Below the pieces are notes generated by a model, which saw only the letters and a program-made list of their open reading frames with translations, ran no database searches and was not told the DNA's origin. Positions 4,751 through 30,679 of a DNA stretch of 32,000 nt are shown here, in pieces. The stretch's first letter is position 1, and every line of letters starts with the position of its first letter. This DNA is from an uncultured Desulfobacteraceae bacterium (GTDB lineage: Bacteria; Desulfobacterota; Desulfobacteria; Desulfobacterales; Desulfatirhabdiaceae), in contig CAIVVZ010000485.1 of assembly GCA_903909505.1 (NCBI GenBank), positions 9,347 through 41,346 on the forward strand, given 5' to 3'. Made by a program: the position numbers and the translations under genes.

Positions 4751-4756
4751 TAAAAA

Positions 4757-5098: not shown

Positions 5099-5268
5099 TC
5101 CAGTGAATTCGAATGGATACGTCCGGTTGATTTTGCAAAGTATTCACTGGCTTTTCGAAATGACGAAGCTTTGCAGTGGTACGGGCAATACCACAAGGAT
5201 TGGCGATCCGGTGAAGCATATCATTAATAGATCAACGTGGTAATTACCTGCATTATGAGGAGACGAAT

Positions 5269-5652: not shown

Positions 5653-5770
5653 AAGAAAATTTACCACTGGCTGGAGCATGGAGATCGCTGGACGGGTTTT
5701 CTGTTCCCGGCCAGTACAATTTCTCACTGTTCAAGATGAAGTTTAAACCTAATGAGAGAGGAGTAGATCA

Positions 5771-6562: not shown

Positions 6563-6565
6563 CTG

Positions 6566-7759
6566 GTGGTCGGATTCCTTGGCTGCGGGTTATTATCAAT
6601 GATTCGGCGCGAAAATACTAATGCAGCCATTGAACTAAAAAGTCTGAACAATGCTGCAGTCGATCAGTTTTCGCCAACAAATATTTCACGGTCTTGTAAG
6701 GCTGTCGACCATTGGGTAAACGGGGCAGCTCACGCGAGATCACAGTTCTACGAGAACTGTCCTTTGTTGACCCAGCCAGCGAAGAAGAAGTCGGTTTTAA
6801 TCAGTTACTCCCACCACGGTGAATGGGGGCCATCGACGGCCTGCGAACTCTCGCGGTTCTGCGCTCAACATGACATAGACTATTTTATTGATGAACACAC
6901 GATTCCCGAGGGTAGCGCCTGGCCGTTTTGGGTGGAGTTTGCAGGTATTCGCCAATGTGGGCTCTTCGTCTTACTGTTGGATAAATACAGCGCTTCCAGT
7001 GGCTGGACAGCAACAGAAACCGAATTCGCACTTCGTTCTATCTATGAAGTCGGCAGCCCGTATATGGTTGTCGTTTTCGAGCCAAGCTACCTCGAAGACA
7101 ACGATGATCGCAGTGAAACACTGCCGGTTTTTCACGCTATTTGCTCTCGCCTGATCGGCACTTACTACGGTCAAGGGGCCACAGCACTACCTATGTACGC
7201 ACCACAGCCATGTTTCGGTAATAGGGAAAGCCTCGAACACTTGAAGAAGCAAATCCGCGATATGACCTTTGGTACCCCTGGACTTATGGGATATAGTGTA
7301 TTTCGGGTCCTCTGCAGAATCAGCGTCGTAATGGAACACAGTGTTGCCCTGCTAACAGCCTTGGGAATGTTCCTGATCTACTTGAAATTTTTCCAACCAG
7401 ATGTCCTGCTGGCTTATTTATCACCGAACTTGGCCATCGCACTATCGAGCGTTTTTTTGTTCTCCTTCGGCTATCAATTGCGTGTTGGCTGGATTGTCTA
7501 CACAACGAGGTGTCAGACTGCTGAAACTACTCCGCTTAGGCATCGTATTAACGCTATCTGGTCTCCATGTGTCCTTCTGATTTCCCTCCTATCCACCAAT
7601 ATTTTTCAACAATTATCATGGGCTGCACGGATCGCGTCGTTGCTCATGCCTGCTTTTGGTTGGTTTGCAAATCGATTTAGCGCCAGGGAAGACAGACTCG
7701 CCCCTGTCTGGTCGATAGTGTCACATAGCCAAGCGGTTTATGGTCTGAAGAAAAAATAG
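6566..7759 (+). CDS. TIR-domain protein with about 4 C-terminal TM helices
   Basis: 397 aa. 'KKKSVLISYSHHGEWG...DIDYFIDEHTIPEGSAW...FVLLLDKYSASSGWTATETEFAL' has the TIR core motifs, including the conserved Glu. The C-terminal 160 aa are strongly hydrophobic. The start is uncertain: GTG at 6566, or in-frame ATG at 6599. It begins 4 nt after the preceding stop. Confidence 0.75.
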   Translation: MVGFLGCGLLSMIRRENTNAAIELKSLNNAAVDQFSPTNISRSCKAVDHWVNGAAHARSQFYENCPLLTQPAKKKSVLISYSHHGEWGPSTACELSRFCAQHDIDYFIDEHTIPEGSAWPFWVEFAGIRQCGLFVLLLDKYSASSGWTATETEFALRSIYEVGSPYMVVVFEPSYLEDNDDRSETLPVFHAICSRLIGTYYGQGATALPMYAPQPCFGNRESLEHLKKQIRDMTFGTPGLMGYSVFRVLCRISVVMEHSVALLTALGMFLIYLKFFQPDVLLAYLSPNLAIALSSVFLFSFGYQLRVGWIVYTTRCQTAETTPLRHRINAIWSPCVLLISLLSTNIFQQLSWAARIASLLMPAFGWFANRFSAREDRLAPVWSIVSHSQAVYGLKKK

Positions 7760-7998
7760 AAAGTTGGAAGTAAGTTATGTAAGTGCAACAGATATTACGG
7801 CACTCAAAACATGCCTTAATGGTTGGTTTTTCACCGACAAGGCCACCCGGCAGGCATCACCGTATGATATGGATGCTGGAGCCATATGAATTAACAATAG
7901 ATAATCAATTTACTCCTGCTGGATGTCTTATTCTGCAAAGCCTTGCAGTCCGCCGGATGAACAAACAATCTCCAAGTCTATCTAAAAAGGAATCGACC

Positions 7999-10635: not shown

Positions 10636-10657
10636 AACCAGTTAATACTGGTTTTTC
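10634..10657 (+). terminator. Rho-independent terminator
   Basis: AAAACCAGT-TAAT-ACTGGTTTT hairpin followed directly by a T-run. It overlaps the stop codon of the RSH-SLOG-RyR gene. Confidence 0.55.
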
Positions 10658-10789
10658 ATCCCCCCATTTCAAAAGCACGATTTTTTAATGGGATGGTGTA
10701 GTTGCAAATCGTCTATTATTGAATGGCGTGGGTAAGAAACATGTCAAACGAACCACAAAAAAAGGTAAGAATGAAGAAAGGAGAAGATC

Positions 10790-13888: not shown

Positions 13889-14449
13889 ATGAAGGAAACA
13901 GGCAAAGCGGGCGGCATAACCTTCTGGCATCAGAAAGCGTACGCCACGGCATATCAGTTCGCCGCCGAGGCGCACAAAGGTCAGTTGCTGCCGGGGAGTG
14001 ATCTGCCGTACATCGTGCATGTCACTCTGGTCGCCATGGAAATCATGGCGTCGCTACAGTTCGAGCGGCAGCACGACGGCGAGCTGGCTATCCAGTGCGC
14101 CCTGCTTCACGATGTGATCGAGGATACGGCGGTTACCTATGAGCAGGTTGCCGAGACCTTTGGGAAGCGGGTGGCAGATGGCGTTCTGGCCCTGAGCAAG
14201 AACAAATGCCTTGAGAAAACAGCGCAGATGGAGGACAGCCTGCTCCGCATCCGGCAGCAAATGCCAGAGATCCGGATGGTCAAGCTGGCCGACCGGATCA
14301 TCAATCTGCAACCACCATTTCCATCCCACTGGAACAAAGAGAAGATCTTCCGATATCGGCAGAAGGCCATCACGATCTACAAGGCGCTGAAGGATGCAAG
14401 CCCATATCTTTCCCTGAGGTTAAGGATGATGATTTCAGCGTGTGGGTAA
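13889..14449 (+). CDS. HD-domain small alarmone hydrolase (SpoT/Mesh1-like (p)ppGpp/(p)ppApp hydrolase domain only)
   Basis: 186 aa. 'AAEAHKGQLLPGSDLPYIVHVTLVA' and 'ALLHDVIEDTAVTYEQVAETFGKRVADGVLALSK' match the RelA/SpoT HD hydrolase motifs (H...HD...ED). Confidence 0.8.
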   Translation: MKETGKAGGITFWHQKAYATAYQFAAEAHKGQLLPGSDLPYIVHVTLVAMEIMASLQFERQHDGELAIQCALLHDVIEDTAVTYEQVAETFGKRVADGVLALSKNKCLEKTAQMEDSLLRIRQQMPEIRMVKLADRIINLQPPFPSHWNKEKIFRYRQKAITIYKALKDASPYLSLRLRMMISACG

Positions 14450-15506: not shown

Positions 15507-16943
15507 ATGAAAGAACATTGGACAAATGATCACTGGTACGATTTCCTTGACGATCTGAGTTCGAACTCCGGCAGGTACGTGCCAGTCGTCGGGTCCGAAT
15601 TGATGGTGTATCAAGAAGCAGGGAAACGCATTAGTGTTCACCAAAAGTTGGCAAAACGACTGGCTGCTAAACTACGAGTCGATACGAAGGAACTGTCGGA
15701 ACCATTTGGGCTGATTGAAGTTATACGCACTTATCAATTGCGCCGCAAAGATTTCGTTTCCGCCAAGCCTTACTCCTCTATCGTGGAAATTCTTAACGAA
15801 GAAAAATGGCCCATTCCCGAACCTGTGCGCAAACTGGCATCCATTCGGCATTTCAATTTCTTTTTGAACGCCAGTTGGTTGCCGTTTCTTAAGCTCGCGC
15901 TGGAGCAGGAACGGCAATTCCCAGTGTTTGAGGCAAGCAATATCGTGGGGAAGCCGATGCAGGACTTTGATGATGAAAGTATTGGTGTCGGTCTCTGCGT
16001 ATTCAACTTGTTTGGCAGTGCATCGGCATCATCTTCGGCCAATTCAAACACATTTTCGGTCACCGATGATGACTTACTTGAGTGTATGCATCGCTTGCTG
16101 TCCAACCCTCCATCGAGAACGAGTGCCCACCTACTCGAAAAGAACCGTGAGTTACTTGTTTGGGGATGCAGTTTTTCCAGTTGGTTGGCCCGTTTTTTTC
16201 TCTATAGCCTTGTCAGGACAGTTCCCCTCCAAGCCGGCCAGGCGCGCCGCATGCGGGTGGTTGCAGACGGGCGCTGCACCGGTGATGATTCCTTGCAAGC
16301 GTTTTGGACCAGTCTCAATGCTCCCATCTACGACGGAGAATCCGCAGTGGATTTCATCGATGAGCTTTTTGAACGGTGGCACAAGGAGTTTCCCGCCGTA
16401 CCGGACCCACTGGCGGACGCGCCCCAGTCAATCCTCCTGGACCATAATCCTTTTTCGACCGGAGAAATCTTTATCAGTTATGCGCGAAAAGACGCAGAAG
16501 CGGCAAAAGAAATTGCGGCATGCCTCAGAAATAATGGATTATCGGTCTGGTTGGACTTGGACTGCCTTCAGAATGGTGACCTCTACCGCGCCAAAATCCG
16601 GTCCAACATTCAATATTGTTCTTGTTTCATCCCCCTGATCTCCTCTGAAGCCATTGGAAATGTCGTGGAACTCGGCTTCATGTACAAAGAGGAATGGCTT
16701 TTTGCCAAGGAGCAGGCCGAGTTGAGGCGTGATGGCGGCATGGCGCTTAGCGAATTCATCCTGCCGGTCTGCATCGATCCGAGTATTGATCTCTACGATC
16801 CTCGACTGCCCGACTTTATCCGGGAGCGGCACATCGAGTCATGGGCGGACGGCCCCCCGTCTTCGTGGACCGGGCGAGTGCGAGAGGCCCGCAAGCAATT
16901 TGCAAGAGCAAAAAAGGGGCAACCAAGAAAGGAACAACAATGA
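15507..16943 (+). CDS. C-terminal TIR-domain protein with a possibly degenerate SIR2-like N-terminal region
   Basis: 478 aa. The TIR falls at about 16460-16850: 'GEIFISYARKDAEAAKEIAACLRNNGLSVWLDLDCL...CFIPLISSEAI...YKEEWLFA'. The N-terminal layout ('YVPVVGSEL', 'VFNLFGSAS', 'LLVWGCSFSSW') resembles SIR2_2 strand/loop spacing but lacks the usual His. The stop overlaps the next gene's start (ATGA). Confidence 0.7.
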   Translation: MKEHWTNDHWYDFLDDLSSNSGRYVPVVGSELMVYQEAGKRISVHQKLAKRLAAKLRVDTKELSEPFGLIEVIRTYQLRRKDFVSAKPYSSIVEILNEEKWPIPEPVRKLASIRHFNFFLNASWLPFLKLALEQERQFPVFEASNIVGKPMQDFDDESIGVGLCVFNLFGSASASSSANSNTFSVTDDDLLECMHRLLSNPPSRTSAHLLEKNRELLVWGCSFSSWLARFFLYSLVRTVPLQAGQARRMRVVADGRCTGDDSLQAFWTSLNAPIYDGESAVDFIDELFERWHKEFPAVPDPLADAPQSILLDHNPFSTGEIFISYARKDAEAAKEIAACLRNNGLSVWLDLDCLQNGDLYRAKIRSNIQYCSCFIPLISSEAIGNVVELGFMYKEEWLFAKEQAELRRDGGMALSEFILPVCIDPSIDLYDPRLPDFIRERHIESWADGPPSSWTGRVREARKQFARAKKGQPRKEQQ

Positions 16944-19900
16944 AGAGCACGGGAGCATGCTCAACCGAACGGCCATGGCCGGGTTTATTTTCTTACACCG
17001 AGGCTGATGCAGGCTTTTTCTTCGGCAGGACGCGGGAACTGACGCAGGTCTCATCCAGCATTCTTGCAAATCGCACGACTGTCATATTCGGCCCTTCCGG
17101 AACCGGGAAAACATCTCTACTGCAAGCCGGGGTGTTTCCTGGTTTGCGAGAGAAAGCCATGTTGCCAATTACCGTGCGCCCTCTCGAGTTCAGCCGCTGC
17201 GCGAACTCCCTCTGTACCTACGTCAAGAGTCATTTGCGCGCTAACTGCCTTGAAGAAGGAATCGAACTCGACGAGGAAAGACTTCCGCCCTTGACCTCCG
17301 AAGCAGATGAGTCGCTTTGGGAATACCTCCAACGTGTTGAGATGTGGGGCGCATCTCTCGAACTGGTTGAACCCGTCCTCGTTTTTGATCAGTTCGAAGA
17401 GTGGATGCGTTTGTTTGCCATCGACGATCCGGCCACGCATGAACTTGCCGATGTGATCGAAAACTACGTCCCGCATGCCATCGAGTCACTTCCCCCGTCC
17501 ACAGCGTGGGGGCAGGTTATCGCATCCCGTAATCATCCCTGGCGCGTTGTCTTGTGTCTACGCGAGGATTGCATCGGCCAACTGGAAGACCTCAGCAGAC
17601 GCATGCCTTCCGTCATGCGCAACCGGATACCCTTGCGGCGGATGACCCGCCAACAAGGGCACGAAGTCATCCTTGGTCCTGGTGCTGACATTATCCACAA
17701 AGAGATGGCAGAACGTCTGCTCGATTTTGCCGTCACCGGCGGCCCGCCAAACAGCGGATCCAATTTGCCGTCGATGCAAGACAACCACCCGGTTGAACCG
17801 GCTATCTTAAGCCTGATCTGCCGGGAATTGAACGAAAGACGCATCACAGAGGGAACCCCACAGATCACAGCTCCCGATATGGAAGAAGCGGGGGGCCAAA
17901 TCCTGCACAACTTCTACAAGCAGTGTTTTTCATCGTTCCGCTCATTAACTGCCCAGTGCTTTGTTGAAGATTACCTCATCGACCCCTCGATCACGCCGGG
18001 CCGAACCTTCGCCACAGATGCTCAAGCGATCAACTCAGGGGTGCGCCCGGACGAAATCGAACACTTGATCGGGCAACGTCTGCTCCGACGGGAAACGCGT
18101 CAGAGCGGCACGCACCTCGAACTGAGCCATGACGTACTCATCCAGCCCGTCAAGGAGAGTCGCGACAGCAGGCTGGAACAGCTTGTCCGTGAGGAGGCGA
18201 AACGGACGGCCCGAGAACTGAAAAAACTAAAACGGCAGCGCCAAGCTATTGCCTACATTTTTGCGATCACCGTCGTTGCGCTGGTCATTTCGGTACTTGC
18301 AGTTTTTGCTGTGATCCAGCGAAAGGAGGCGGACCGACAGCGCCGCTTGGTCGAGCTAAAGCTGGATCTGGTCCTTGGTGCCATAGACAAACTAATTTAT
18401 CAGATTCCCGATCAACTGGGCAAGCTGCCGGGCAGCATCCCCATCATCTCCCGCATTCTGGAAGAGAATCTCGATCTCATGCAGCGCCTTCTGCAGTTCA
18501 ATCCCGATTCGGGTTCGCCACGTGCCCAGCGCAATCTGGCCGCCAATCACCTGAAACTCGGAGACCGCTGGCTGCTTATCGGCGACACGAAACACGCCAT
18601 ATCCGCCTATGGCGAGGCGGAAAAACTGCTTCAGACGCTGGACCAACAGCAACAGAGCGCCCGATCGCAACGAGACATTGCCTATCTCAACGAACGCATG
18701 GGCTCGGCACTGCTACGGCGGGGCGACATCGAAGATGCCCGGCAGCGCTACCAGACAGCGCTCTCGATTGACACGGCGCTGTTCAGTCAGCACCCGGATG
18801 AGGTCGAAAACCTGCGCTCTCTGGCGGTGGATTATCAGCATTTGGGGGACGTGGCAGCGCGCGTGGTGGACCATCCCGGCGCCCTGACATTCTATACCCA
18901 GTTCCTATTGGCAGCCGAACGGCTTGCCGACCGACCCGGCACTCCAATGGATCGACGCTACCTGGCCACATCCCAGGACAAGCTGGCCTTGGTTCATGGG
19001 TGGCTCGGGAATCTGCAAGCGGCGCGTTGGCATGCATCCAACTGTGTCGAGCTGACCCGCAGCCTGGCCAACGACGTTCATGATTTGCCGTTTCGACGAG
19101 ATTTTGTCACGGCGCTGCAGAGACTGGGCAATCTCCAGAAGAAAATGGGTGATCCCGGCCAGGCACTGATGACCTTCCGGGAGATGGAGGCCGTTGCCAG
19201 ACAACTGCCGCTGGATCCAGCCAACCTGGACACCCGATTCAACCACGCTTTGGCAATGCGACAAAGTGCCGACTGTCTGGTAGACCTTAACCGTGTCGAA
19301 GAGGCCCTGGCGGTCTATGATGAAACCGAACGGGTTTTTCGTGGCGCCATTCTTGGTGCGGATCCTGAAGACCATACCGTCTATCTGCAGTTGGCGGAGA
19401 TTTTCGGGGGGCGTGCCTGGGCTCATGCTTTGCGGCAAGAACTGAATCCGGCCATTAAGGATTATCTGCGGTGCATCGATACACTGGAGACAATCCCTGA
19501 GATATCACGTGACAAGGTAGTACAGAACAAACTCATGGCCGCCCACACCCGTGTGGCAAAGTTGCTGGACGATCTCGGAGACGTGCCCGGGCGCAACACC
19601 CATTGGCAAGCAGCCGGACACCTGTTCCGCCAGCAATACGGGGATACTTTCCCGGTTGAGGCATGGACGCCCGTCACGCGGGGCCTGCTCTTTCACATCA
19701 TCGGCGAAAGCAACACCACCATCATCGCCGACCTGCGAGAGGATGAGGCGGATAAACACAAGGCGGTACAGGCATCCCGCACACGCGAATCTCTGCGGGC
19801 CTGGAATATGACCTGTGCAAGCCTGGCCACAGCGCTTGCGGATGCGGGCCAATTGCAGGAAGCGGCGCAGATCTACGCGCAGATGCTGGCCACTGCCTCG

Positions 19901-20869
19901 GATTACCTCAAAAACAACGACGATGCAGTGATCCGCGGCGATCTTGCCTACAGCTATCTGAAACAGGGCGAACTCCTGAAACGCGCGGGAGACCGGAATG
20001 GGGCGCTACAGGCACTGACGAGCGCACACGCGCTGTTTAAAAAAGTCGCGGCGGGACAATCCAGGCAGTTCAACATCGTTTACGGTCTTGCCACCATCCA
20101 GCGCGCCCTGGCGGATGAATGTCTTCACCACGCCGCGTCTGGAGACAATCTGCCAAAACGCCTTGAACTTGCCGAAACCTGTCTGGGATACGCCAGCGAG
20201 CTGATCGGTCTGGACGGCGCTCTGCTAAAAACGGGAAAAGCACCCGGAATCAGCGGCATGACGATCCTCCAGGATGCCGAACGCATCGCCCGTCTGTGCA
20301 GCCTGATCCAAAACCGGGAAGAAGCGGCAAAATCGTGGAAACACGTGGGCGATCTATCGCTAACACTCTGGGGGGACGAATCGACCGTTCCCGCAAGAGC
20401 GCTGCTCTTGCAATATGCCAGTACCGCCGCTGACGGTATGTGTGCCGCGGGCCAGCCTGACCAGGCGGTTTCCCTGATCGAGTCCGTGAGCCAGCGCATC
20501 GAGAAAACCATCTCCGGTCCGGCCGACTTCGCAGGGCACCAGCACCTGGCATCGGCCCTTGGTAACCTTTGCTGGCTGCAGCTTCTTGCCGGAAACGGTC
20601 AGGCTGCCATGACTACCGGGTCCCGCGCCGTTGCCCTGATCCCCAATGAGCGCCCCAACCCCGCACGTTTGAACCTTGCCCATGCCTATCTGCTGAGCGG
20701 TTCATTCGACCATGCGAAGGGCCTCCACGAAAAATATTCCGGCACGGTCTTTGAAGACGGCCGACACTGGAACAGCGAGGTGCGTAACGACTTCAGGCTG
20801 TTGCGCGAGGCGGGATTTGACCACCCGGATTTCAAGAAAATCGAGGCGATGCTGAAGGATATGGATTAA
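16940..20869 (+). CDS. STAND NTPase (nSTAND-like P-loop) / single TM helix / long TPR array
   Basis: I place the start at ATG 16940, an ATGA overlap with the upstream stop. The track's 16841 start would overlap the upstream gene by about 100 nt. Walker A is 'IFGPSGTGKTSLLQAG' (about 17090). Walker B is 'VLVFDQFEEW' (about 17378). The TM helix is 'IAYIFAITVVALVISVLAVFAVI' (18247-18316). About 850 aa of TPR-like repeats follow. Confidence 0.8.
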   Translation: MKSTGACSTERPWPGLFSYTEADAGFFFGRTRELTQVSSSILANRTTVIFGPSGTGKTSLLQAGVFPGLREKAMLPITVRPLEFSRCANSLCTYVKSHLRANCLEEGIELDEERLPPLTSEADESLWEYLQRVEMWGASLELVEPVLVFDQFEEWMRLFAIDDPATHELADVIENYVPHAIESLPPSTAWGQVIASRNHPWRVVLCLREDCIGQLEDLSRRMPSVMRNRIPLRRMTRQQGHEVILGPGADIIHKEMAERLLDFAVTGGPPNSGSNLPSMQDNHPVEPAILSLICRELNERRITEGTPQITAPDMEEAGGQILHNFYKQCFSSFRSLTAQCFVEDYLIDPSITPGRTFATDAQAINSGVRPDEIEHLIGQRLLRRETRQSGTHLELSHDVLIQPVKESRDSRLEQLVREEAKRTARELKKLKRQRQAIAYIFAITVVALVISVLAVFAVIQRKEADRQRRLVELKLDLVLGAIDKLIYQIPDQLGKLPGSIPIISRILEENLDLMQRLLQFNPDSGSPRAQRNLAANHLKLGDRWLLIGDTKHAISAYGEAEKLLQTLDQQQQSARSQRDIAYLNERMGSALLRRGDIEDARQRYQTALSIDTALFSQHPDEVENLRSLAVDYQHLGDVAARVVDHPGALTFYTQFLLAAERLADRPGTPMDRRYLATSQDKLALVHGWLGNLQAARWHASNCVELTRSLANDVHDLPFRRDFVTALQRLGNLQKKMGDPGQALMTFREMEAVARQLPLDPANLDTRFNHALAMRQSADCLVDLNRVEEALAVYDETERVFRGAILGADPEDHTVYLQLAEIFGGRAWAHALRQELNPAIKDYLRCIDTLETIPEISRDKVVQNKLMAAHTRVAKLLDDLGDVPGRNTHWQAAGHLFRQQYGDTFPVEAWTPVTRGLLFHIIGESNTTIIADLREDEADKHKAVQASRTRESLRAWNMTCASLATALADAGQLQEAAQIYAQMLATASDYLKNNDDAVIRGDLAYSYLKQGELLKRAGDRNGALQALTSAHALFKKVAAGQSRQFNIVYGLATIQRALADECLHHAASGDNLPKRLELAETCLGYASELIGLDGALLKTGKAPGISGMTILQDAERIARLCSLIQNREEAAKSWKHVGDLSLTLWGDESTVPARALLLQYASTAADGMCAAGQPDQAVSLIESVSQRIEKTISGPADFAGHQHLASALGNLCWLQLLAGNGQAAMTTGSRAVALIPNERPNPARLNLAHAYLLSGSFDHAKGLHEKYSGTVFEDGRHWNSEVRNDFRLLREAGFDHPDFKKIEAMLKDMD

Positions 20870-21911: not shown

Positions 21912-24563
21912 ATGACCGTAAAACAGATTCTGGTCACAGGCGATTTTGTTCACGACAACCATATCTATGAAGGACGGCGTTCCCATTACGGTGACAATAC
22001 GAGTGCAGGCGTAAATCTTAAATCGCAACTCGGCGGGGCGGCCCTGGTGCATGATCTTCTGGATCAGCTCTTGATGGTTAAGAATGAGTCGGAGCGGAAG
22101 TGGAAATCAATCTGTGCGCTGGAGCATACTGCAAACAGCAGCGAGGACTGCCATCTCACCCCGGCAGAGCAGGCATTTGCCTTCTGGCGCCCGTTTCAGA
22201 ATGCAGCGACTGATAAACAATTCTGGCGGGTCAGCGAGGCTATGGGGTTTGGTCCCGCCGAAACAACGCCGATGTGTAAAGTATTGCCCCCAGTGGAAAC
22301 AACCAACAAACCTGAAATTTTGGTTTATTCTGAAGGGGGCATGGGTTTTCGGGAATGCAGGGGGAATTGGTGTGAAGACATGCTATCGGATGCCAAATGG
22401 ATCGTGCTTAAAACCACTTCTCCCGTGGCAACCGGGGCTTTATGGATGCACCTTTCGGAAAAATATCATAATAAACTGATCGTGATCGTTTCTGCCCGAG
22501 AACTCCGCAAATCTCCTGCAAGAATGAATGCCGAGCTGTCGTGGGAAGAAACCATTGAGGGACTTATCCGGGAGGTCGGGCCGGAAGGTACTTTACATGC
22601 GTTATCAAATTGCCGTCACCTGATAGTGGCATTTGAATCGGAGGGTGCTCTCTGGCTCGACATAAAAACTGGTTTTTCTGATGCAAGCGCCTGCCTGATT
22701 TATGAGTCCGGTTCAATTGAAGGTGAACATGCTTACGTGACCAAAGGGACGGCCTTCGGTTATCTCTCCTGTCTTGCTGCTGCCGTTACCTGGGGATTAA
22801 CCTCCGACTCCACCAACTTAGATCTTGCCGCGTCCCTTGAGGGAGGGCTTTCTGCGATGAGGGACCTGAGGGAAAAAGGCCACGGACCTGCCAATGACAA
22901 ACCTGATGGTTTCCCAGCCAAGCGTCTTGCAGACGAAATAAAAAAGACTTCATTGCGTTATTCGCGAGCTTTTTTCCGAACAACAGACCTGGCTGCTAAT
23001 GCTAGCCCCGGCTCGGTTTCCGAATGGAGTTTTCTTCGCCAGGCGCAGCGCAACGATGGGCCGGCCTATGACCTTGCACGGCTTGTTCTTCTCCGTGGCC
23101 CCATTGCTCTTGATAACCTGCCGCATCTGAAAGTAGGCAACCTTTTAACAGCTGACCGCATGGAAATTGAAGCCTTTCGCACCCTTGCCCAGGTCATCCG
23201 AAGATATGTGGAGAAGGATTCCGGCAAGAAGCCCCTCTCCATCGGCGTCTTCGGCCCTCCCGGAGCTGGTAAATCCTTTGCGGTTGAGCAAATTGCCAAA
23301 AACCTTGTAAAAAATGTTGAGTGGCGGGAGTTCAACCTTTCTCAGTTCAATGATCCAGTGGACTTAATTGGAGCCTTCCATCAGATCCGTGACCATGTTT
23401 TGCAAGGTAAACTCCCTGTAGCTTTTTTTGACGAGTTTGATTCACAAAATTTTAAATGGCTTCAGTACCTCCTTGCGCCGATGCAGGACGGAAAGTTTCA
23501 GGAAGGGCAACTTACCCATACCTTGGGAAAATGCCTTTTCGTTTTTGCCGGTGGAACCAGTCCTACGTATGATGCCTTCGGCCCCCCGGAAACTTCGGAC
23601 AAAGATGGCATGGAGACTGAACTTCGACAAAAATTTCGTCTTGCAAAAGGTCCTGATTTTAAAAGCCGCATTGAAGCCTATTTAGATGTATTAGGGCCGA
23701 ACCAGCGTCAAATCCTCCAGACAGTTATACCCGAAGACAAGAGGCTTGTTGAGAAAATTAGTGGTCGCGATTTCATCATCGACCAATCTGACATCGTTTT
23801 TCCGGTACGCAGGGCTTTGATGATACGCGCTCAGTTAAAGTGCGGAACGGATGACAAGCTGGAAATGGACGAGGGGTTGATTCATGCCTTGCTACATGTT
23901 GAAAAATATATCCATGGCAACAGGTCCCTGGAAAAAATTTTGCAACCCTTTGCAGCGGCCCAGACCAGTAGCCTGCACAGCTCCCTCCTCATGCCCTTAA
24001 CCCAGCTCTGCATGTACACTGATGGAAAAGCATTTATCTCGTTCTGCTCAAGTGCACCGAAACTGTTTTCCCCTGAAGCGCCTCTGACCAAGGTGCAAAT
24101 TGAAAAAATCGCTCCGGCAATTCATGAAACTTACTGTGAACTTGAAGATAAAAAAGATGAGAAGAAGCCGAAGACAAATAAGGATTTCGAGAGTCTTAAC
24201 GAGTTTTTCAAGAATTCCAATCTCGCCGCTGCAACACGAATGTTAAAATTAATGGCTATTGTGGGACTAACTTTAGAGAATGGAATTGCAAGCGAAGAAG
24301 AGGAAAATTCCGTCAGACACTATCTGGAATATTATCTCCTGGCACTGGCCGATGCTGAGCATGAAGAGTGGATGGAGTGGCACTTCTCTCAAGGATGGCA
24401 TTACAACAAAGATCGAATTAATGAAAAGAAACTCCACCCCTGCTTACTCCCGTTTTCAAAATTGACCGATCCGGATAAGGAAAAAGACCGGAATGCGATC
24501 CGGCATTTCCCTGATTTTGTCCGCAAGGCGGATATGAAAATCATATTCCAAAAACAGCTCTGA
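21912..24563 (+). CDS. PfkB/ribokinase-like (degenerate) / AAA+ ATPase / RyR-domain protein
   Basis: 883 aa with an AGGAGG RBS. The N-terminal 'ILVTGDFVHDNHIYEG...LGGAALVHDLLDQL' resembles the PfkB sugar/nucleoside-kinase N-terminus, and the GAGD anion-hole position reads 'TKGTAFG'. AAA+ Walker A is 'GVFGPPGAGKSFAVEQIAK' (about 23254) and Walker B is 'VAFFDEFDS'. The RyR repeats fall at about 24100-24540 ('IHETYCEL...', 'AEHEEWMEWHFSQGWHYNKDRINEKKLHPCLLPFSKLTDPDKEKDRNAI'). Confidence 0.75.
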   Translation: MTVKQILVTGDFVHDNHIYEGRRSHYGDNTSAGVNLKSQLGGAALVHDLLDQLLMVKNESERKWKSICALEHTANSSEDCHLTPAEQAFAFWRPFQNAATDKQFWRVSEAMGFGPAETTPMCKVLPPVETTNKPEILVYSEGGMGFRECRGNWCEDMLSDAKWIVLKTTSPVATGALWMHLSEKYHNKLIVIVSARELRKSPARMNAELSWEETIEGLIREVGPEGTLHALSNCRHLIVAFESEGALWLDIKTGFSDASACLIYESGSIEGEHAYVTKGTAFGYLSCLAAAVTWGLTSDSTNLDLAASLEGGLSAMRDLREKGHGPANDKPDGFPAKRLADEIKKTSLRYSRAFFRTTDLAANASPGSVSEWSFLRQAQRNDGPAYDLARLVLLRGPIALDNLPHLKVGNLLTADRMEIEAFRTLAQVIRRYVEKDSGKKPLSIGVFGPPGAGKSFAVEQIAKNLVKNVEWREFNLSQFNDPVDLIGAFHQIRDHVLQGKLPVAFFDEFDSQNFKWLQYLLAPMQDGKFQEGQLTHTLGKCLFVFAGGTSPTYDAFGPPETSDKDGMETELRQKFRLAKGPDFKSRIEAYLDVLGPNQRQILQTVIPEDKRLVEKISGRDFIIDQSDIVFPVRRALMIRAQLKCGTDDKLEMDEGLIHALLHVEKYIHGNRSLEKILQPFAAAQTSSLHSSLLMPLTQLCMYTDGKAFISFCSSAPKLFSPEAPLTKVQIEKIAPAIHETYCELEDKKDEKKPKTNKDFESLNEFFKNSNLAAATRMLKLMAIVGLTLENGIASEEEENSVRHYLEYYLLALADAEHEEWMEWHFSQGWHYNKDRINEKKLHPCLLPFSKLTDPDKEKDRNAIRHFPDFVRKADMKIIFQKQL

Positions 24564-24666
24564 AATGTCCAAGTTTGATAACCTGGGAATTGAGGCGGAA
24601 GTGCATAGAAGGTTGCCGGAGTTCCGCCTCATCACAACAAAATTGTTGGGACTGGAGGCAAAAATT

Positions 24667-25084
24667 ATGAAATCTTATCGAGTTTTCGTCAGCTATTCTC
24701 ATGAAAACAAAGACGAAGCGGAAAAAGTTCGCAAACACCTGAAGAACATTGGCACAACGTCTATGTCGGATCATAATTTGGCGCCCGGCATGTCTTTCAC
24801 CGACGAAATCAAGCGCTACATAGCCTATTCTCATCTTTTTATCCCCATCCGTTGGCGATTGGTTCCTTGCAGAAGCAGTCGTTCCGCTGAAAGGTGACTC
24901 CTATCGCCTGACCATGTTCACGCGCCATGGACCGACGGTTATCGATCGCGTAACGGAGTTTGACAATGAACTTGAAGACCTGCTGAAGATGACCGACCTC
25001 AAGGGAAAATCATCGCGATGTTTTGCCATAGACCATCTTAATGATTTGATTGAAAATATCAGAAAAGGGGAATCTGCAAACTAA
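24667..25084 (+). pseudogene. Small stand-alone TIR-like protein, apparently frameshifted near 24826-24850
   Basis: ATG 24667 has GGAGG 8 nt upstream; ATG 24565 is an alternative start. 'YRVFVSYSHENKDEAEKVRKHLKNIG...' is the TIR first strand. The ORF frame stops at 24897. The +1 frame continues with 'LSPSVGDWFLAEAVVPLKGD...' (the expected SxW..E TIR motif) and stays open to TAA at 25082-25084. Confidence 0.6.
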
Positions 25085-25238
25085 ATCATTATTGGAGCAA
25101 TACCCTTGGCCATCTGTTCAGACGATCGAAACCCTCATAACATTCGTTAGGGAGCAACTCACCATGGGCCGCAAAACAGACAAAAACATGAAATAATGGC
25201 AGTAAATCATGTGAATTCAGCAAGAAGGAAATATAATC

Positions 25239-28200
25239 ATGGAAATTAAGTGCCCTGAATGCAGCTCGCCGGAGCCGATGTGGAACAAAAAACGGCAGGT
25301 CCATGTCTGCGTGGATTGCAGTCATGAATTTACGGTCGAAAAGCCCTTTGTGCCTTACCGGGTATTCATCAGTTACGGCCATGACGAACATGCCTCGCTG
25401 GCGCTGCGGCTGCGGGATGATTTGCGAGAAAGGGGACACGAGGCATGGTTCGACGATGATCTCCTCATGCCCGGTCATGATTGGGAGTCGCATATCGAGG
25501 AGGGGCTTCAATGGGCAGCTGCGGGCAAGCCGAATGCCGCAGTGGCTCTGCTGTTGACCCCGCATTCGGTGCGCCGCCCGGACGGCTATTGCCTGAACGA
25601 GGTGGCCCGCGCCCTGATTCTGGGACTGCGGATTATCCCGCTGATGGTGGTGGAAAGCGAGCCGCCGCTCTCCATTTGCCGCATTCAGTGGCTTGACATG
25701 CGGGAGTGCATCCCGATCCATGAAAAGGAAGCACTTTATGCCCCTCGGTTCGAGCGGTTTCTGGCTGCGCTGGAGCAGGGAAAGCTGGATTTCGAGGGAG
25801 TTCAGAGTCGTCTGCTCCGCGTATTACAGCCCATCCATTTCTCCGCCGACCTGCTCAAACTGCTCCGTGATTTCACCGGGAGGCAGTGGGTGTTCGATGA
25901 GGTGGACACCTGGTTTGCCAATCCCGCCGGCGCAAAAGTGTTCTGGCTGACAGGCGCACCCGGTGTGGGCAAAAGCGCAATCGCCGCCTGGATCAGGGAG
26001 CATCGCCGTGAAGTCGCCGCCTTTCACTTCTGCGACATTTACAGCGAAGAAAAACGCAACCCCGCCAAACTCGTCTGCTCCATAGTGTACCAGCTCACAA
26101 CCCAGCTACCGGAATACGAGGCCCGTCTTGCCCGTCTCGATCTGGAGTCCATCGTTCAGGAATATCACGAGGCCTACACCCTCTTCGACAAACTCCTTGT
26201 CCAGCTTCTGGCTGACGCTTTTCCCGTCCCCGATCGCCCCATCGTCGTGCTCATTGACGCCCTTGACGAGGCCACATCCGACCGCCGCAACGAGATCGTC
26301 CGCTTCCTCAGCCAATGCGCGGACAAAACCCCTCCCTGGATGCGTTTTCTTGTCACCTCGCGCCCCGAACCGGAAATCACCGCCTCGTTCCAGGCGCTTT
26401 CCCCCTACATCCTTGACACCAGCAGAGAGGAAAACATCAACGATCTAAGACGTTACCTCATTATGGGCCTTCCCGGCATTACCCCGGAGCAGACCGGGGA
26501 AATCCTGCGCAGAAGCGAAGGCGTTTTCCTCTACGTTATCCATGTGATGGAAGCCATTCGGGGCGAAACTCTCAGCCTGCAACGCATGGAGGAATTTCCT
26601 CGCGGCCTGGGCGATGTATACCAGCGGTACTTCGATCGCCAGTTTGGAAAGGATCTGACCTACTACGAAAGCAAAATCACCCCGATTCTCCAACCCATCT
26701 TCGCAGCTTATGAGCCGCTCACCCTGAACCATCTCAAACGGATCTGTGATATCACCGACGACACCGAACTGCTGCGCCGCCTCAACCGCCTCGGTTCGCT
26801 TTTTCCCACCAGCGGCGAAGGCGAAACAGAGACAATCCGCCCCTTTCACCGTTCGCTCTGCGACTGGATCACCGACCGTAACTCCGCGGGACACTTCGTC
26901 ATCGCCATATCCGACGGCCGCCGCATCCTGGCTGAGCATTGCTGGCGCGAATTCCAGCATGGCCTGGACGCGCTTTCCCCCTACGCCCTGCGCTATTTAC
27001 CGGCTCACCTATGCGCGGCCGAACGCTGGGATGACCTGATCGGTAATGAAACGAATCCTGGCCCGCTGACAGATCTGCGCTATATCGAAGCCAAATGCAC
27101 CGCCGGATTAACGCACGATCTTGTTCGAGACTACAACTCGGCCCTCACCGACCTTCCGGAGTTCCGGGAGGAGAACGAACGGCTCCAGCGGCGGGACGAG
27201 GCAATGCATAGATACAACCAGGCCCTGCGGGATTACGCGGTAAAGCATTATGACTGGTTGCAGTCTAAAGATAGCGGTGAATTGGTCGCTGAACCAGAAT
27301 ACCCTCCGTTGCCTCCCGAGCTGCAAATCAAAGCCGAAATGGAGATCCCAGAAGAACATTCGCCACGCGCCGCCCGTTTGCGGCATTTCGCCAACTTCGT
27401 GTCGGGCCACATGAATACTCTTGCAGCGTTTCCACGCGAAACTCTGCCGCTCGCTTTCAACTATGCAGAAAATGGGCCTGTCCACGACCTTGCCAAGCGA
27501 CATATCGATGATCGCAAACTGCCTTTCCTGAAACGTTCTCCCCGCCCTCCCATGCCCCCTTTTCAACCGCAATGCATGCAAACTCTTGAAGGACACAGCG
27601 GCTCAGTCGAAAGCGTGTGCGTGTGCCCAGATGGACGCCGCGCCGTCTCGGCAAGTTGGGGCATCACCCTTCGGATATGGGACCTGCAGAGCGGACAATG
27701 CCTGCAAACACTTGTAGGACACATCTCCCGGGTCTACAGCGTATACGTGTGCCCCGATGGGCGTCACGCTGTCTCGGCAAGTGATGACAATACCCTTCGA
27801 ATCTGGGATCTGGAAAGCGGGCAATGCCTGCAAACACTTGAATGCTACAGAAACCATGTTGACAGCGTGAGCGTGTGCCCAGATGGACGCCGCGTCGTCT
27901 CGGCAAGTGCAGACAATACCCTTCGAATCTGGGACCTGCAAAGTGGACAATGCCTGTTAACACTTGTAGGCGACGATTCCCCCGTCACCAGTGTATGCGT
28001 GTGCCCAGATGGACGCCGCGCCGTCTCGGCAAGTGCAGACAATACCCTTCGAATCTGGGACCTGCAAAGTGGACAATGCCTGCAAACACTTGAATGCGAC
28101 AGCTCCCAGCACTCCCAAGTGAGCGTGTGCGTATGCCCAGATGGACGCCGCGCCGTTTCGGCAAGTGCAGAGAATACCCTTCGGATCTGGGACCTGCAAA

Positions 28201-28928
28201 GTGGACAATACCTGCAAACACTTGAAGGCCACACCGACTCGGTCTACAGCGTGTGCGTGTGCCCAGATGGACGTCGCGCCGTCTCGGCAAGTTGGGACAA
28301 AACCCTTCGAATCTGGGACCTTGAGAACGGGCAATGCCTGCAAACACTTGTAGGACACAGCTCCGGGGTCCACAGCGTGTGCGTATGCCCAGATGGACGT
28401 CGCGCCGTTTCGGCAAGTTGGGACAAAACCCTTCGAATCTGGGACCTTGAGAACGGGCAATGCCTGCAAACACTTGAATTCCAAAGCTTCTTGGACGGCA
28501 GCGTGTGCGTGTGCCCCGATGGACGCCGCGCCGTCTTGACAAGTGATTACGGTGTCCTTCGAATCTGGGACCTTCAGAGCGGCGAGATTCTGGCCATATA
28601 CTGTGGTAGTGCCGTTTCGATGACATTATCACCGGCTGGCGACCATATCATCTGCGGAACGGCGGATGGCCAGGTTCATTTCCTCACCCTTGTCAACTTC
28701 CCGCCTTCCGGCCCAGCAATCATCACCGCAATCAATTCATCCAAAGCCCGCTGCCCCTATTGCAGCAAGGAGTTTGTGCCTCCTCTGGATGTAGCCAATG
28801 CAATAAATGCTCATGCTGACTTCAGTGATCCGCAATCTGAGATCCTTTCGGCCTGCCCCAACTGCGGCAAGACACTCAAGTACAACCCATTTTTCATACA
28901 CACTTTCGAGCCAACCCAGATCCGGTGA
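25239..28928 (+). CDS. Zn-ribbon / TIR / NACHT-type STAND NTPase / WD40 beta-propeller / C-terminal Zn-ribbon (bacterial NLR-like protein)
   Basis: 1229 aa. 'CPECSS...CVDCSHEF'. TIR: 'YRVFISYGHDEHASLALRL...AWFDDD...LLLTPHSVRRPDGYCLNEVARAL'. Walker A: 'FWLTGAPGVGKSAIAAWI' (about 25952). Walker B: 'IVVLIDALDEA' (about 26241). Eight near-identical WD40 units plus one degenerate unit. C-terminal 'CPYCSKEF...CPNCGKTL'. Confidence 0.9.
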   Translation: MEIKCPECSSPEPMWNKKRQVHVCVDCSHEFTVEKPFVPYRVFISYGHDEHASLALRLRDDLRERGHEAWFDDDLLMPGHDWESHIEEGLQWAAAGKPNAAVALLLTPHSVRRPDGYCLNEVARALILGLRIIPLMVVESEPPLSICRIQWLDMRECIPIHEKEALYAPRFERFLAALEQGKLDFEGVQSRLLRVLQPIHFSADLLKLLRDFTGRQWVFDEVDTWFANPAGAKVFWLTGAPGVGKSAIAAWIREHRREVAAFHFCDIYSEEKRNPAKLVCSIVYQLTTQLPEYEARLARLDLESIVQEYHEAYTLFDKLLVQLLADAFPVPDRPIVVLIDALDEATSDRRNEIVRFLSQCADKTPPWMRFLVTSRPEPEITASFQALSPYILDTSREENINDLRRYLIMGLPGITPEQTGEILRRSEGVFLYVIHVMEAIRGETLSLQRMEEFPRGLGDVYQRYFDRQFGKDLTYYESKITPILQPIFAAYEPLTLNHLKRICDITDDTELLRRLNRLGSLFPTSGEGETETIRPFHRSLCDWITDRNSAGHFVIAISDGRRILAEHCWREFQHGLDALSPYALRYLPAHLCAAERWDDLIGNETNPGPLTDLRYIEAKCTAGLTHDLVRDYNSALTDLPEFREENERLQRRDEAMHRYNQALRDYAVKHYDWLQSKDSGELVAEPEYPPLPPELQIKAEMEIPEEHSPRAARLRHFANFVSGHMNTLAAFPRETLPLAFNYAENGPVHDLAKRHIDDRKLPFLKRSPRPPMPPFQPQCMQTLEGHSGSVESVCVCPDGRRAVSASWGITLRIWDLQSGQCLQTLVGHISRVYSVYVCPDGRHAVSASDDNTLRIWDLESGQCLQTLECYRNHVDSVSVCPDGRRVVSASADNTLRIWDLQSGQCLLTLVGDDSPVTSVCVCPDGRRAVSASADNTLRIWDLQSGQCLQTLECDSSQHSQVSVCVCPDGRRAVSASAENTLRIWDLQSGQYLQTLEGHTDSVYSVCVCPDGRRAVSASWDKTLRIWDLENGQCLQTLVGHSSGVHSVCVCPDGRRAVSASWDKTLRIWDLENGQCLQTLEFQSFLDGSVCVCPDGRRAVLTSDYGVLRIWDLQSGEILAIYCGSAVSMTLSPAGDHIICGTADGQVHFLTLVNFPPSGPAIITAINSSKARCPYCSKEFVPPLDVANAINAHADFSDPQSEILSACPNCGKTLKYNPFFIHTFEPTQIR
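27594..28607 (+). repeat. Tandem array of 8 highly conserved 126-bp (one 132-bp) WD40-coding units
   Basis: Units start at 27594, 27720, 27846, 27972, 28098, 28230, 28356 and 28482. The consensus is 'H..xVxSVCVCPDGRRAVSASxDxTLRIWDLQSGQCLQTLxG'. Units 6 and 7 differ at 2 of the 102 nt in codons 7-40. Confidence 0.9.
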
Positions 28929-29241: not shown

Positions 29242-29296
29242 TGATATAATCTAATGGTGTTTGGATTTAATATATGTCATTATCCAATGGTGTTTG
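29242..29296 (+). promoter_or_regulatory. Extended -10 promoter element plus an 11-bp direct repeat upstream of the ATPase gene
   Basis: TGATATAAT (29242-29250) matches the extended -10 TGnTATAAT. AATGGTGTTTG occurs at 29253-29263 and again at 29286-29296, a 33-bp period, just before ATG 29300. Confidence 0.35.
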
Positions 29297-29299
29297 AGC

Positions 29300-30679
29300 A
29301 TGAAAAGACAATTAGAAAATGACCTCGATGCATGGAAGGGCCGTGTTGACAGAAAGCCGTTGATCGTGCGTGGAGCGCGGCAGGTGGGCAAAACCTTTCT
29401 CGTTGAGGATTTCGGCCACCGCTGTTTTGAGTCCGTCCTGACGGTCAACCTGGAGCAAAAGGAGAACCTGCATCGTCTGTTCGAGGGGATGGAACCGCAA
29501 TGGATCATTCAGGAGCTGGGTCTGTATTTCAATCAGTCTGTTGTGCCGGGTAAGACGTTGTTGTTTCTGGACGAGGTGCAGGCCTGTCCAAAGGCTATTG
29601 CCTGCCTGCGCTATTTTCAGGAAGCGCTTCCCGACCTTCATGTCATTGCCGCCGGGTCGCTGCTGGAGTTCGCATTACGGGAATTCAAGCATTCCATGCC
29701 GGTGGGCCGCATCGAATATCTTTACCTCTATCCGCTGACCTTTTCCGAGTTTCTCTCGGCGCTCGGTGAGGACAGGCTTGTCACATGGCTGGAAAACTAC
29801 CATGTCGGCGATCCATTCAGCGATACGGCGGATATCAGACTGCGGGAATTTCTACGCCTCTATTTTTTCATCGGAGGCATGCCGGCGGCTGTCGCCGCCT
29901 ACCGGGAGCGACGGGATCTGGTCGAAGTACAGCGCGTGCTGACGTCCATTATCACCACATTGCAGGACGATTTCGCCAAATACGGCACGCGTGCACAACA
30001 GCGCAATATGCGCCGGGTTTTGCGCCATATCCCGCTGTCCATCGGACGGAAAGTGCGTTACGTGAACATTGATCGCGAGACCAGGGCGGGAGATTTGCGG
30101 ACCGCGCTTGAGTTACTTGAACTCGCTGGGTTTGTTTCTCTTGTCCGTCACAGTTCGGCGAACGGTGTGCCGCTTGGAGCCGAGGCATCGAATGACCGGT
30201 TCAAGCCGCTGCTGCTGGACATCGGGCTATGTGGAAATCTCTGTGGTTTAAATTTGCCTGATGATGCCAAACTACTGACCGTTCAGGAGGGGAGCCTGGC
30301 CGAGCAATTGGTTGGACAGGAGCTTCGAGCCGTCGGCCCATGCTTCGCCGAACACCCCCTTTTCTACTGGCACCGGGAAGCAAGGAACGCGAATGCGGAG
30401 GTGGATTATCTCTGGACCCATGATGGAATCGTTATTCCTGTGGAAGTGCGGGCCGGAACGTCGGGCAGCCTTAAATCCACACATGTCTTTCTGGCAGAGA
30501 AAGCGCGGCGTTTTGCGGTCCGCTTCAACCTGGATCGCCCGTCCATCGGTGACTTCTCTGTTGACCTTGGCAGCAAAACCGACGCAAAATCTGTATCGTA
30601 CACCCTCTTGTCCCTGCCGATTTACCTGGCCGGGCAGTTGGATCGTCTGATTCGTGAGCAATACGCCACGGGCGGATAG
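29300..30679 (+). CDS. AAA_14-type ATPase with DUF4143-like C-terminal domain
   Basis: I prefer the start at ATG 29300 ('MKRQLENDL...'). Walker A is 'RGARQVGKTFLV' and Walker B is 'LLFLDEVQ'. The C-terminal 'EVDYLWTHDGIVIPVEVRAG' is typical of the DUF4143 (restriction-endonuclease-like) module. Confidence 0.75.
   Translation: MKRQLENDLDAWKGRVDRKPLIVRGARQVGKTFLVEDFGHRCFESVLTVNLEQKENLHRLFEGMEPQWIIQELGLYFNQSVVPGKTLLFLDEVQACPKAIACLRYFQEALPDLHVIAAGSLLEFALREFKHSMPVGRIEYLYLYPLTFSEFLSALGEDRLVTWLENYHVGDPFSDTADIRLREFLRLYFFIGGMPAAVAAYRERRDLVEVQRVLTSIITTLQDDFAKYGTRAQQRNMRRVLRHIPLSIGRKVRYVNIDRETRAGDLRTALELLELAGFVSLVRHSSANGVPLGAEASNDRFKPLLLDIGLCGNLCGLNLPDDAKLLTVQEGSLAEQLVGQELRAVGPCFAEHPLFYWHREARNANAEVDYLWTHDGIVIPVEVRAGTSGSLKSTHVFLAEKARRFAVRFNLDRPSIGDFSVDLGSKTDAKSVSYTLLSLPIYLAGQLDRLIREQYATGG

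Follow-up and report, generated by a model that had tools for sequence, protein, structure and literature searches.

Fungal NOD-like receptors (NLRs) of the HNWD/NWD type and highly repetitive (HR) WD40 proteins of prokaryotes are the described systems closest to the gene analyzed here. HET-E, HET-D and HET-R of Podospora anserina join a death-inducing N-terminal domain to a NACHT-type nucleoside triphosphatase (NTPase) and to 42-residue WD40 repeats with high internal conservation (HIC), and the repeats of HET-E and HET-D have been classed by positions 10, 11, 12, 14, 30, 32 and 39, which were chosen for a high ratio of nonsynonymous to synonymous divergence (dN/dS) (PMC12222747). Passages of a survey of highly repetitive prokaryotic WD40 proteins describe predicted hotspot sites that stay diverse (Hu et al., 2017, PMC5587647), and excerpts of the literature on this HR/HIC class already report both the diversity of predicted top-face hotspots and an association with STAND ATPases (PMC5587647; bioRxiv 10.1101/2020.01.06.895854; PMC13449251). 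Whether repeat conservation in NLR sensors outside fungi arises by the same mechanism and is adaptive has been asked in recent work, which, in the portion cited here, leaves open whether mechanism and benefit match the fungal ones (PMC13449251). We analyzed a stretch of 32,000 nucleotides (the window) of contig CAIVVZ010000485.1 from an uncultured Desulfobacteraceae bacterium, in which one gene (the focal gene) carries an array of eight WD40 units. Together with six related arrays, the window lets that question be addressed at the DNA level in a TIR–NACHT–WD40 family. We document the domain architecture of the protein, the four-stranded blade made by each unit, the homogenization of the scaffold within the gene, the mosaic make-up of the units and an excess of nonsynonymous divergence at six positions, and we consider it probable that the array serves a bacterial NLR-like STAND protein as its ligand-sensing beta-propeller, operating by the mechanism set out below.

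The focal protein has a tripartite layout according to Pfam, made up of an effector domain at the N terminus, an NTPase followed by a winged helix, and C-terminal repeats. One array is detected by Tandem Repeats Finder, spanning 27570-28582 with a period of 126 nt, 8.0 copies, 80% matches and a score of 1118; a period of 384 nt, considered as a higher-order repeat, is no better supported (77% matches versus 80%). An initial annotation of the window had placed the array at 27594-28607. The eight in-frame units stand, but that frame begins one codon late, and the units run from 27591 to 28604 (Table 1), with two additional codons in the first loop of unit 5 (u5), which therefore has 44. Their identity as WD40 repeats is borne out by the Pfam match (WD40, amino acids 785-1154, E 4e-75) and by four strands common to every unit in two AlphaFold models. 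The units had also been described as nearly identical in nucleotide sequence, which is correct for u6 and u7 only (92%); u1-u7 are 77-92% identical to one another, and u8 reaches 64-67%. Over the scaffold codons, that is the 36 codons outside the hypervariable set defined below, the units are on average 88% identical, and the longest exact stretches that they have in common measure 67 bp (u6/u7) and 39 bp.

The comparison of u6 with u7 had been given correctly. In the 18 nt that follow the first codon, they differ by six nonsynonymous nucleotide changes (CAC ACC GAC TCG GTC TAC versus CAC AGC TCC GGG GTC CAC), and the remainder, until the last codon, by two synonymous changes alone (GTG/GTA and GTC/GTT); the peptide strings quoted in the annotation are likewise all found in the array. 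At the protein level, mean pairwise identity of the repeats is 0.70 for all eight units and 0.76 for u1-u7, and similarity to the consensus is 0.81. The array thereby passes the threshold used for the HIC/HR class, which the available passages give as an internal repeat identity or similarity of at least 0.7 (PMC5587647; PMC13449251), and the residual variation is concentrated at predicted top-face hotspots.

Variation is clustered, as had been claimed: 155 of the 212 pairwise amino acid differences among u1-u7 fall within 11 of the 42 codons. Because these 11 codons were picked from the window itself, the dN/dS computed for them (only 1.0) is circular, and they were replaced by a six-codon set defined outside the window. 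The hypervariable set (HV6) was taken from the mean within-protein entropy per position in the in-register 42-residue units of 58 other homologues, and consists of positions 3, 4, 5, 7, 23 and 25, with entropies of 1.45-2.27 bits. These are exactly the six most variable codons of the window array, where they hold 102 of the 212 pairwise differences; among 1e6 random six-codon sets, none equalled HV6. Positions 1, 2, 24 and 42 are further variable positions in the focal protein.

In the established topology of WD40 propellers, the D-A loop, the start of strand A and the B-C turn are top-face elements. The strands occupy identical positions in every unit of two independent AlphaFold2 (AF2) models (A, 6-11; B, 17-22; C, 26-31; D, 37-42), so that the D-A loop comprises positions 1-5, strand A has position 7 as its second residue and the B-C turn is made by positions 23-25. 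The expectation that the variable sites lie on the top face rather than in the core thus agrees with the predicted secondary structure read against general WD40 topology. The loops of the opposite face vary little, the A-B loop (PDGR) being invariant and the C-D loop (LQSGQ) variable at positions 33/34 only. Interaction hotspots of WD40 proteins have been assigned to residues R1 and R1-2, where strand A begins, within the pattern (V/L/I)-R1-R2-(V/L/I), and to residue D-1, which precedes the tetrad Asp (Wu et al., PMC3419727); in the window units, R1-2 corresponds to position 5, R1 to position 7 and D-1 to position 23. The place of the GH dipeptide suggests a register offset of 7 between the fungal and the window repeats, and with this offset six of the seven fungal high-dN/dS positions (10, 11, 12, 14, 30 and 32) coincide with unit positions 3, 4, 5, 7, 23 and 25. 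The seventh, fungal site 39, corresponds to unit position 32 and is invariant in the window.

Divergence at these positions was estimated by Nei-Gojobori counting, pooled over u1-u7, with intervals from a codon bootstrap; the repeats compared are paralogous and subject to recombination, and their HV codons are close to saturation. In the window, dN at HV6 is 1.00, and the other 36 codons have a dS of 0.36 and a dN of 0.07, which gives a ratio dN(HV6)/dS(scaffold) of 2.8. Expressed as proportions of sites, nonsynonymous differences at HV6 (pN 0.55) exceed synonymous differences in the scaffold (pS 0.29) by 0.26, with a bootstrap 95% interval of 0.10-0.42. Six related arrays for which DNA was obtained (L001 to L006) extend the comparison to seven arrays and 67 units in total. 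In L001, L002, L004, L005 and L006, dN(HV6) is higher than scaffold dS by a factor of 1.4 to 4.9, and zero lies outside the bootstrap interval for all of them but L002. Scaffold dS is saturated in L003 (1.3), where the ratio of HV6 dN to scaffold dS is 0.58. The selection for diversity that had been proposed is thus supported in the window, and five of the six related arrays agree.

The scaffold is homogenized within each gene yet differs from one orthologue to the next, as is typical of concerted evolution. Within arrays, scaffold nucleotide identity is 0.82-0.90 in six of the seven (0.74 in L003), whereas between arrays it is 0.51-0.73, and 65 of the 67 units have their nearest scaffold neighbor in their own array. 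The units of the window are also mosaic. When the four-gamete test is applied to 11 informative scaffold sites, 25 of the 55 site pairs are incompatible, and the groupings conflict: two sites eight codons apart join u5 with u7, others join u6 with u7 or u3, u4 and u5. These conflicts indicate exchange between units, although recurrent mutation at third positions could contribute. Concerted evolution by repeat recombination, which had been put forward from the u6/u7 pattern and its fungal parallel, is supported by both the own-array neighbors and the four-gamete failures. In L003 (10001-14443, protein P0004), the blades have an amino acid identity of 0.65, with dS of about 1.3 and a scaffold dN/dS of 0.13.

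A simpler history would be the recent amplification of one blade followed by neutral decay, with the variable codons being merely the least constrained surface sites and with neither selection for diversity nor continuing exchange. Loops are indeed expected to be least constrained, the best structural matches include the Nostoc 'highly repetitive propeller' 2ymu and its WRAP derivatives, and L003 keeps similar blades without recent homogenization. However, neutral sites should track the silent rate, and dN at HV6 exceeds scaffold dS by factors of 2.8 (window) and 1.4-4.9 (five further arrays). The other surface loops, moreover, are nearly invariant (A-B PDGR; C-D LQSGQ outside 33/34), and the four-gamete incompatibilities imply that the units do not lie on a simple duplication tree. 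We consider neutral decay unlikely.

Exchange may reach beyond single genes. L005 contains two adjacent STAND genes (3461-7594 and 7699-11949) with unrelated N-terminal halves, TIR-NACHT in one and DUF4062-AAA_16 in the other, and with one and the same WD40 scaffold; their arrays are 85% identical in DNA sequence over ~2.1 kb and differ at hypervariable codons. The pair suggests exchange of repeats or of whole sensors between paralogues, a kind of sharing known from fungal NWD genes. For the HV6 residue combinations of the window, no counterpart is detectable in the closest relatives. Compared with the units of six relatives, those of the window find best matches that equal a column-shuffled null (p 0.44-0.99), and overall protein identity between the window protein and those relatives is 55-68%.

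This comparison bears on a further explanation, in which the blades bind one constant partner, such as a host protein or the product of the neighboring AAA-RyR gene, each at a different place, and the differences between blades are old and conserved. A propeller on an asymmetric ligand needs non-identical blades, the AAA-RyR gene is a recurrent neighbor, and synonymous differences are proportionally more frequent at the HV codons (0.52) than in the scaffold (0.29), which fits old differences. Against this explanation, the HV combinations match those of the six relatives no better than the shuffled controls do, while identity over the remaining protein is 55-68% and the AAA-RyR neighbor can be aligned over nearly its full length at 29% identity. 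The number of repeats, in addition, ranges from 6 to 15 among relatives. We regard a fixed asymmetric site as quite unlikely.

A database search found 852 homologues with the focal architecture, several of them named 'TIR domain-containing protein' by their sources, in Lentisphaerae, Verrucomicrobia (Haloferula), Planctomycetes, Nitrospiraceae, Acidobacteriota, Armatimonadota and methanogens. The nearest database proteins are 60-66% identical, and the cluster of the focal protein has one member. No strain-level relative was found by exact-product look-up, by a genome-collection scan, or by protein-pattern and exact-DNA scans of a metagenome collection; the genome-collection scan returned one related locus, in the Verrucomicrobiota metagenome-assembled genome contig JBAXOP010000274.1 (L007; 67% identity), which is cut before the array. 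L007 stops at about residue 603, and P0016 and P0078, which are among the closest database proteins, both have 791 residues, so that all three end at or just before the WD40 array, which suggests that short-read assemblies commonly break at its start.

The window contains nine repeats (eight units and a degenerate blade), compared with ~6 in P0009 and 13-15 in P0002-P0007. Nine is an unusual blade count for a WD40 protein. When 8-bladed propellers are fitted, the single-sequence AF2 model gives 2.1-2.2 Å over ~330 columns and the alignment-based model ~4 Å over ~372 columns. Since relatives' assemblies break at the array, nine repeats contrast with 13-15 and the two models disagree, we treat the repeat number in the window as provisional.

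The array itself, or its repeat number, might be a chimera or a collapse produced by short-read metagenome assembly, possibly with strain variants merged. The truncated relatives, the odd number of nine against 13-15 in the closest relatives and the disagreement between the models on the fit to an 8-bladed template speak in favor of it, and fungal arrays of this kind could not be rebuilt from Illumina data (PMC12222747). On the other hand, the reading frame of the focal gene (25239-28928) is unbroken across 3.7 kb, every unit is distinct, and the longest exact repeats (67 and 39 bp) are shorter than ordinary reads. The positional pattern recurs in six independently assembled arrays, and a collapse removes units but would not create position-specific variation. 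We judge an assembly artefact to be very unlikely.

The domains that precede and follow the array are listed in Table 1. The N-terminal zinc ribbon is also kept in P0002-P0005 and in the archaeal P0028 (Methanofollis), and the CPxCG...NPF motif of the C-terminal ribbon is retained in relatives including P0028. Plant and bacterial TIR NADases have their catalytic Glu within a WCxxE motif. The focal TIR domain has the motif GYCLNEV at 25584-25604, and its E121, unchanged among the close relatives aligned, is at the position of that residue, from which a catalytic role may be predicted. The closest solved sequence is the bacterial TIR 3h16, and a search of PDB sequences with the N-terminal 780 residues, alone or as a 3-sequence profile, returned weak TIR matches only. 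The NTPase core has a Walker A motif GAPGVGKS at 25953-25976 (amino acids 239-246), which fits GxxxxGK[ST], and a Walker B motif VVLIDALDEA at 26244-26273 (amino acids 336-345), which fits hhhhDxxDE. Besides its match to NPHP3_N, a profile for STAND NTPases of the NACHT type, it scores 23.7 bits against PF05729 NACHT, under the cut-off of 26.7, with weak matches to nSTAND3 and APAF1_C too. NCBIfam gave no match above cut-off for the focal protein, and Rfam and tRNA scans of the 32-kb window were empty.

Table 1. Features of the focal gene and of its neighborhood, in window coordinates (u, repeat unit; aa, amino acids; AF2, AlphaFold2)
Feature	Position	Strand	Evidence or remark
Focal gene, 1229 aa	25239-28928	+	Zn-ribbon–TIR–NACHT-like STAND NTPase–winged helix–WD40–Zn-ribbon; open reading frame list and Pfam
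N-terminal CxxC...CxxC zinc ribbon (CPECSS ... CVDCSH)	25248-25328	+	Motifs; weak Pfam Zn-ribbon matches below cut-off
TIR domain, predicted effector	25362-25706 (aa 42-156)	+	Pfam TIR_2, E 2.1e-16, 60.9 bits (cut-off 28)
NACHT-like STAND NTPase core	25884-26363 (aa 216-375)	+	Pfam PF24883 NPHP3_N, E 2.2e-28, 99.9 bits (cut-off 24.8)
Winged-helix domain of STAND module	26670-27020 (aa 478-594)	+	Pfam HTH_TANC1, E 2.1e-7, 31.3 bits (cut-off 27)
Helical linker after winged helix	to 27569	+	Helices in AF2 model
QCMQTLE, strand-D-like segment before u1, candidate 'velcro' strand	27570-27590	+	Resembles unit positions 36-42
Eight WD40 units, in frame	27591-28604	+	126 nt (42 codons) each; u5, 132 nt
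u1	27591-27716	+	
u2	27717-27842	+	
u3	27843-27968	+	
u4	27969-28094	+	
u5	28095-28226	+	
u6	28227-28352	+	
u7	28353-28478	+	
u8	28479-28604	+	
Ninth, degenerate blade (GSAVSMTLSPAGDHIICGTADGQVHFLTLVNF)	28605-28700	+	Three strands in alignment-based AF2 model
C-terminal CxxC...CxxC zinc ribbon (CPYCSKEF ... CPNCGKTLKYNPFF)	28752-28895	+	Motifs; weak Pfam zinc-ribbon matches
Kinase+trypsin protein	1550-4750		Pfam/PADLOC scan
TIR protein	6566-7759		
RelA/SpoT+SLOG+RyR	7783-10635		
Ankyrin+TIR	10790-13663		
HD protein	13889-14449		
TIR protein	15507-16943		
nSTAND1+TPR	16841-20869		
AAA ATPase, 883 aa, C-terminal RyR; possible partner gene	21912-24563	+	Pfam RyR E 1.5e-13, AAA/bpMoxR
Short TIR open reading frame	24565-24897		Continues in +1 frame (...SPSVGDWFLAEAVVPLKGDSYRL...) to stop ending at 25085
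AAA_14/DUF4143 gene	29261-30679		PADLOC candidate PDC-S01, E 1.5e-143

The alignment-based AlphaFold model, which covers amino acids 30-1229, has a mean predicted local distance difference test score (pLDDT) of 83.5, and its top PDB match is full-length Apaf-1 (3sfz; E 2.9e-35, 1106 columns, 16% identity). The global fit to Apaf-1 is poor, with a TM-score of ~0.3 and a root-mean-square deviation of 23 Å, so the match reflects a common domain order and common folds. At the edges of the array, the segment QCMQTLE would close the propeller with the last blade, a role suggested by its likeness to strand D in a part of the model where pLDDT is <50. The degenerate blade lies outside the homogenized set, and P0002-P0009 have a matching terminal blade.

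Two aspects of residue composition are recorded here for the array. The GH dipeptide is retained in four of the eight units, with CY, GD, CD and FQ in the other four, and the tetrad Asp (position 24) is substituted in three window units; with 0.25 and 0.18 bits, both are near-invariant in relatives. Cys is unusually abundant in the scaffold, with 23 residues in the array at positions 10, 12 and 37.

We hypothesize that the 126-nt units undergo unequal recombination and short-tract gene conversion, which would keep the scaffold uniform and alter the number and order of the blades, while selection would keep or promote differing residues on the ligand-binding top face. The recognition surface could thereby change much faster than the remaining protein. 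The ligand might be a phage protein, another non-self protein or an altered-self protein, the binding of which would release the NTPase module. The freed module would then oligomerize in an NTP-dependent manner, as in Apaf-1 and other NLRs, and oligomerization would gather the N-terminal TIR domains, which are predicted to cleave NAD+, leading to its depletion or to production of a signal. Cleavage of NAD+ would finally stop growth or kill the cell.

Several points weigh against this interpretation. That the surface can be rapidly re-programmed, as the initial annotation suggested, is conjectural, since the mean scaffold dS of 0.36 between units means that most units were not homogenized recently. 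The saturated dS of L003 shows that high repeat identity in this gene family can come from purifying selection alone. An excess of dN over dS between paralogous blades also fits a one-off specialization of blades to an asymmetric ligand, which the comparison cannot separate from continuing diversification, and the raised synonymous proportion at the HV codons hints at selection that preserves old diversity against conversion. The loss of GH from half of the units, together with the count of nine repeats, could point to a contracted, possibly weakened, or mis-assembled allele; the blade number may be 8 or 9, and the two AF2 models disagree on the fit to 8-bladed templates. Furthermore, the PDB sequence search with the N-terminal 780 residues found no solved structure among close relatives, and in PADLOC no validated-system model matches the NTPase module, with no Avs or bNACHT match at E <= 0.01. 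The PADLOC matches to the focal protein are domain-level TIR matches and one match of the WD repeats, to HEAT-ARM_XIII, only.

The large open reading frames of the window are all co-directional and of the conflict-system type, with five TIR domains in 32 kb (Table 1). The AAA-RyR protein, for which neither PADLOC nor NCBIfam gives an assignment, may be a functional partner of the TIR-NACHT-WD40 protein. Homologues of ~860-880 residues, with 29% identity over ~800 residues, occur directly upstream of the related TIR-NACHT-WD40 gene in L005 (867-3440, E 3e-100) and near it in L002 (3960-6521, minus strand, E 5e-90), and proteins with RyR, TIR and RelA/SpoT-SLOG domains recur in L001 and L002. 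The short TIR frame and its continuation (24565-25085) resemble a small TIR gene that a single frameshift has split, and may represent a pseudogene or a sequencing error. A stretch of low GC content at 5001-6562 (0.41, GC skew +0.20) lies beside a 263-residue open reading frame (5771-6562), which has no Pfam or PADLOC match.

We speculate, as a possibility that we hold to be rather doubtful, that the Zn-ribbon–TIR–NACHT–WD40 gene, the AAA–RyR gene and the surrounding TIR, RelA-SpoT-SLOG and HD genes form an uncharacterized bacterial and archaeal immune or allorecognition module. In that case, strain-specific receptor repertoires would arise as blades recombine inside a gene and, as in L005, between paralogues that lie side by side, and the module would be a prokaryotic counterpart, possibly an ancestor, of HET-E/NWD diversification in fungi.

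Among systems with a known architecture, Apaf-1 and the focal protein both place a STAND NTPase, a winged helix and a helical domain before WD40 propeller sensors. Apaf-1 differs in having a CARD effector, an NB-ARC-type NTPase and non-repetitive propellers of 7+8 blades, where the focal protein has a TIR domain, an NPHP3_N/NACHT-type NTPase and homogenized blades. Bacterial TIR-STAND, bNACHT and Avs proteins follow the same logic of effector, NTPase and repeat sensor in a single polypeptide, and the Glu motif of the focal TIR domain and its defense-type neighbors are in keeping with them. Most of the characterized bacterial STAND anti-phage sensors are TPR-like, whereas the focal sensor is a WD40 array, a type ('Apaf1-like WD40 beta-propellers') that is recognized among defense-associated prokaryotic STANDs (PMC13581612).

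STAND sensors of multicellular bacteria that are diversified by diversity-generating retroelements (DGRs; PMC10907252) embody the same idea, in that ligand-binding residues are diversified on a scaffold that is kept. Targeted mutagenesis of the DGR type was considered for the window and rejected: a scan of open reading frames of at least 150 residues gave no reverse transcriptase domain, no template copy of the repeat exists outside the array, and variation is not limited to adenine positions. A conserved 30-mer of the unit is confined to the array, and the differences between units involve all four bases.

The surveys of HR/HIC proteins name, in the passages considered, Actinobacteria, Cyanobacteria and Archaea, and Verrucomicrobiota and Planctomycetota are unmentioned there. 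Nor do these passages contain a DNA-level dN/dS by repeat position for bacterial NLR-like arrays, for which the present analysis covers seven arrays. The TIR–NACHT–WD40 family spans Verrucomicrobiota, Lentisphaerae, Planctomycetes, Nitrospirae, Acidobacteria and methanogens, and is a reasonable candidate for experiments on how specificity changes in a bacterial NLR-like receptor.

The parallel with fungal NWD proteins, drawn in the initial annotation for HET-E, is upheld by the coincidence of six of seven positions and by the support for concerted evolution and for selection for diversity, signatures that the fungal HNWD and the window arrays both carry. Identity among the repeats is lower in the window, at 77-92% of nucleotides, than the 80-100% quoted for fungal repeats in the source passage. 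The focal protein differs from fungal HNWD proteins in its bacterial host, in having TIR_2 and a zinc ribbon in place of the HET domain, and in its C-terminal zinc ribbon. Because it is without a HET domain, for which there is no Pfam match in the protein, it falls outside the fungal HNWD family; by analogy, it would work like an HNWD protein without being a member. The phenomenon is already described in fungi and noted in bacteria, and this locus is a well-supported further example of it, rather than a new kind of system.

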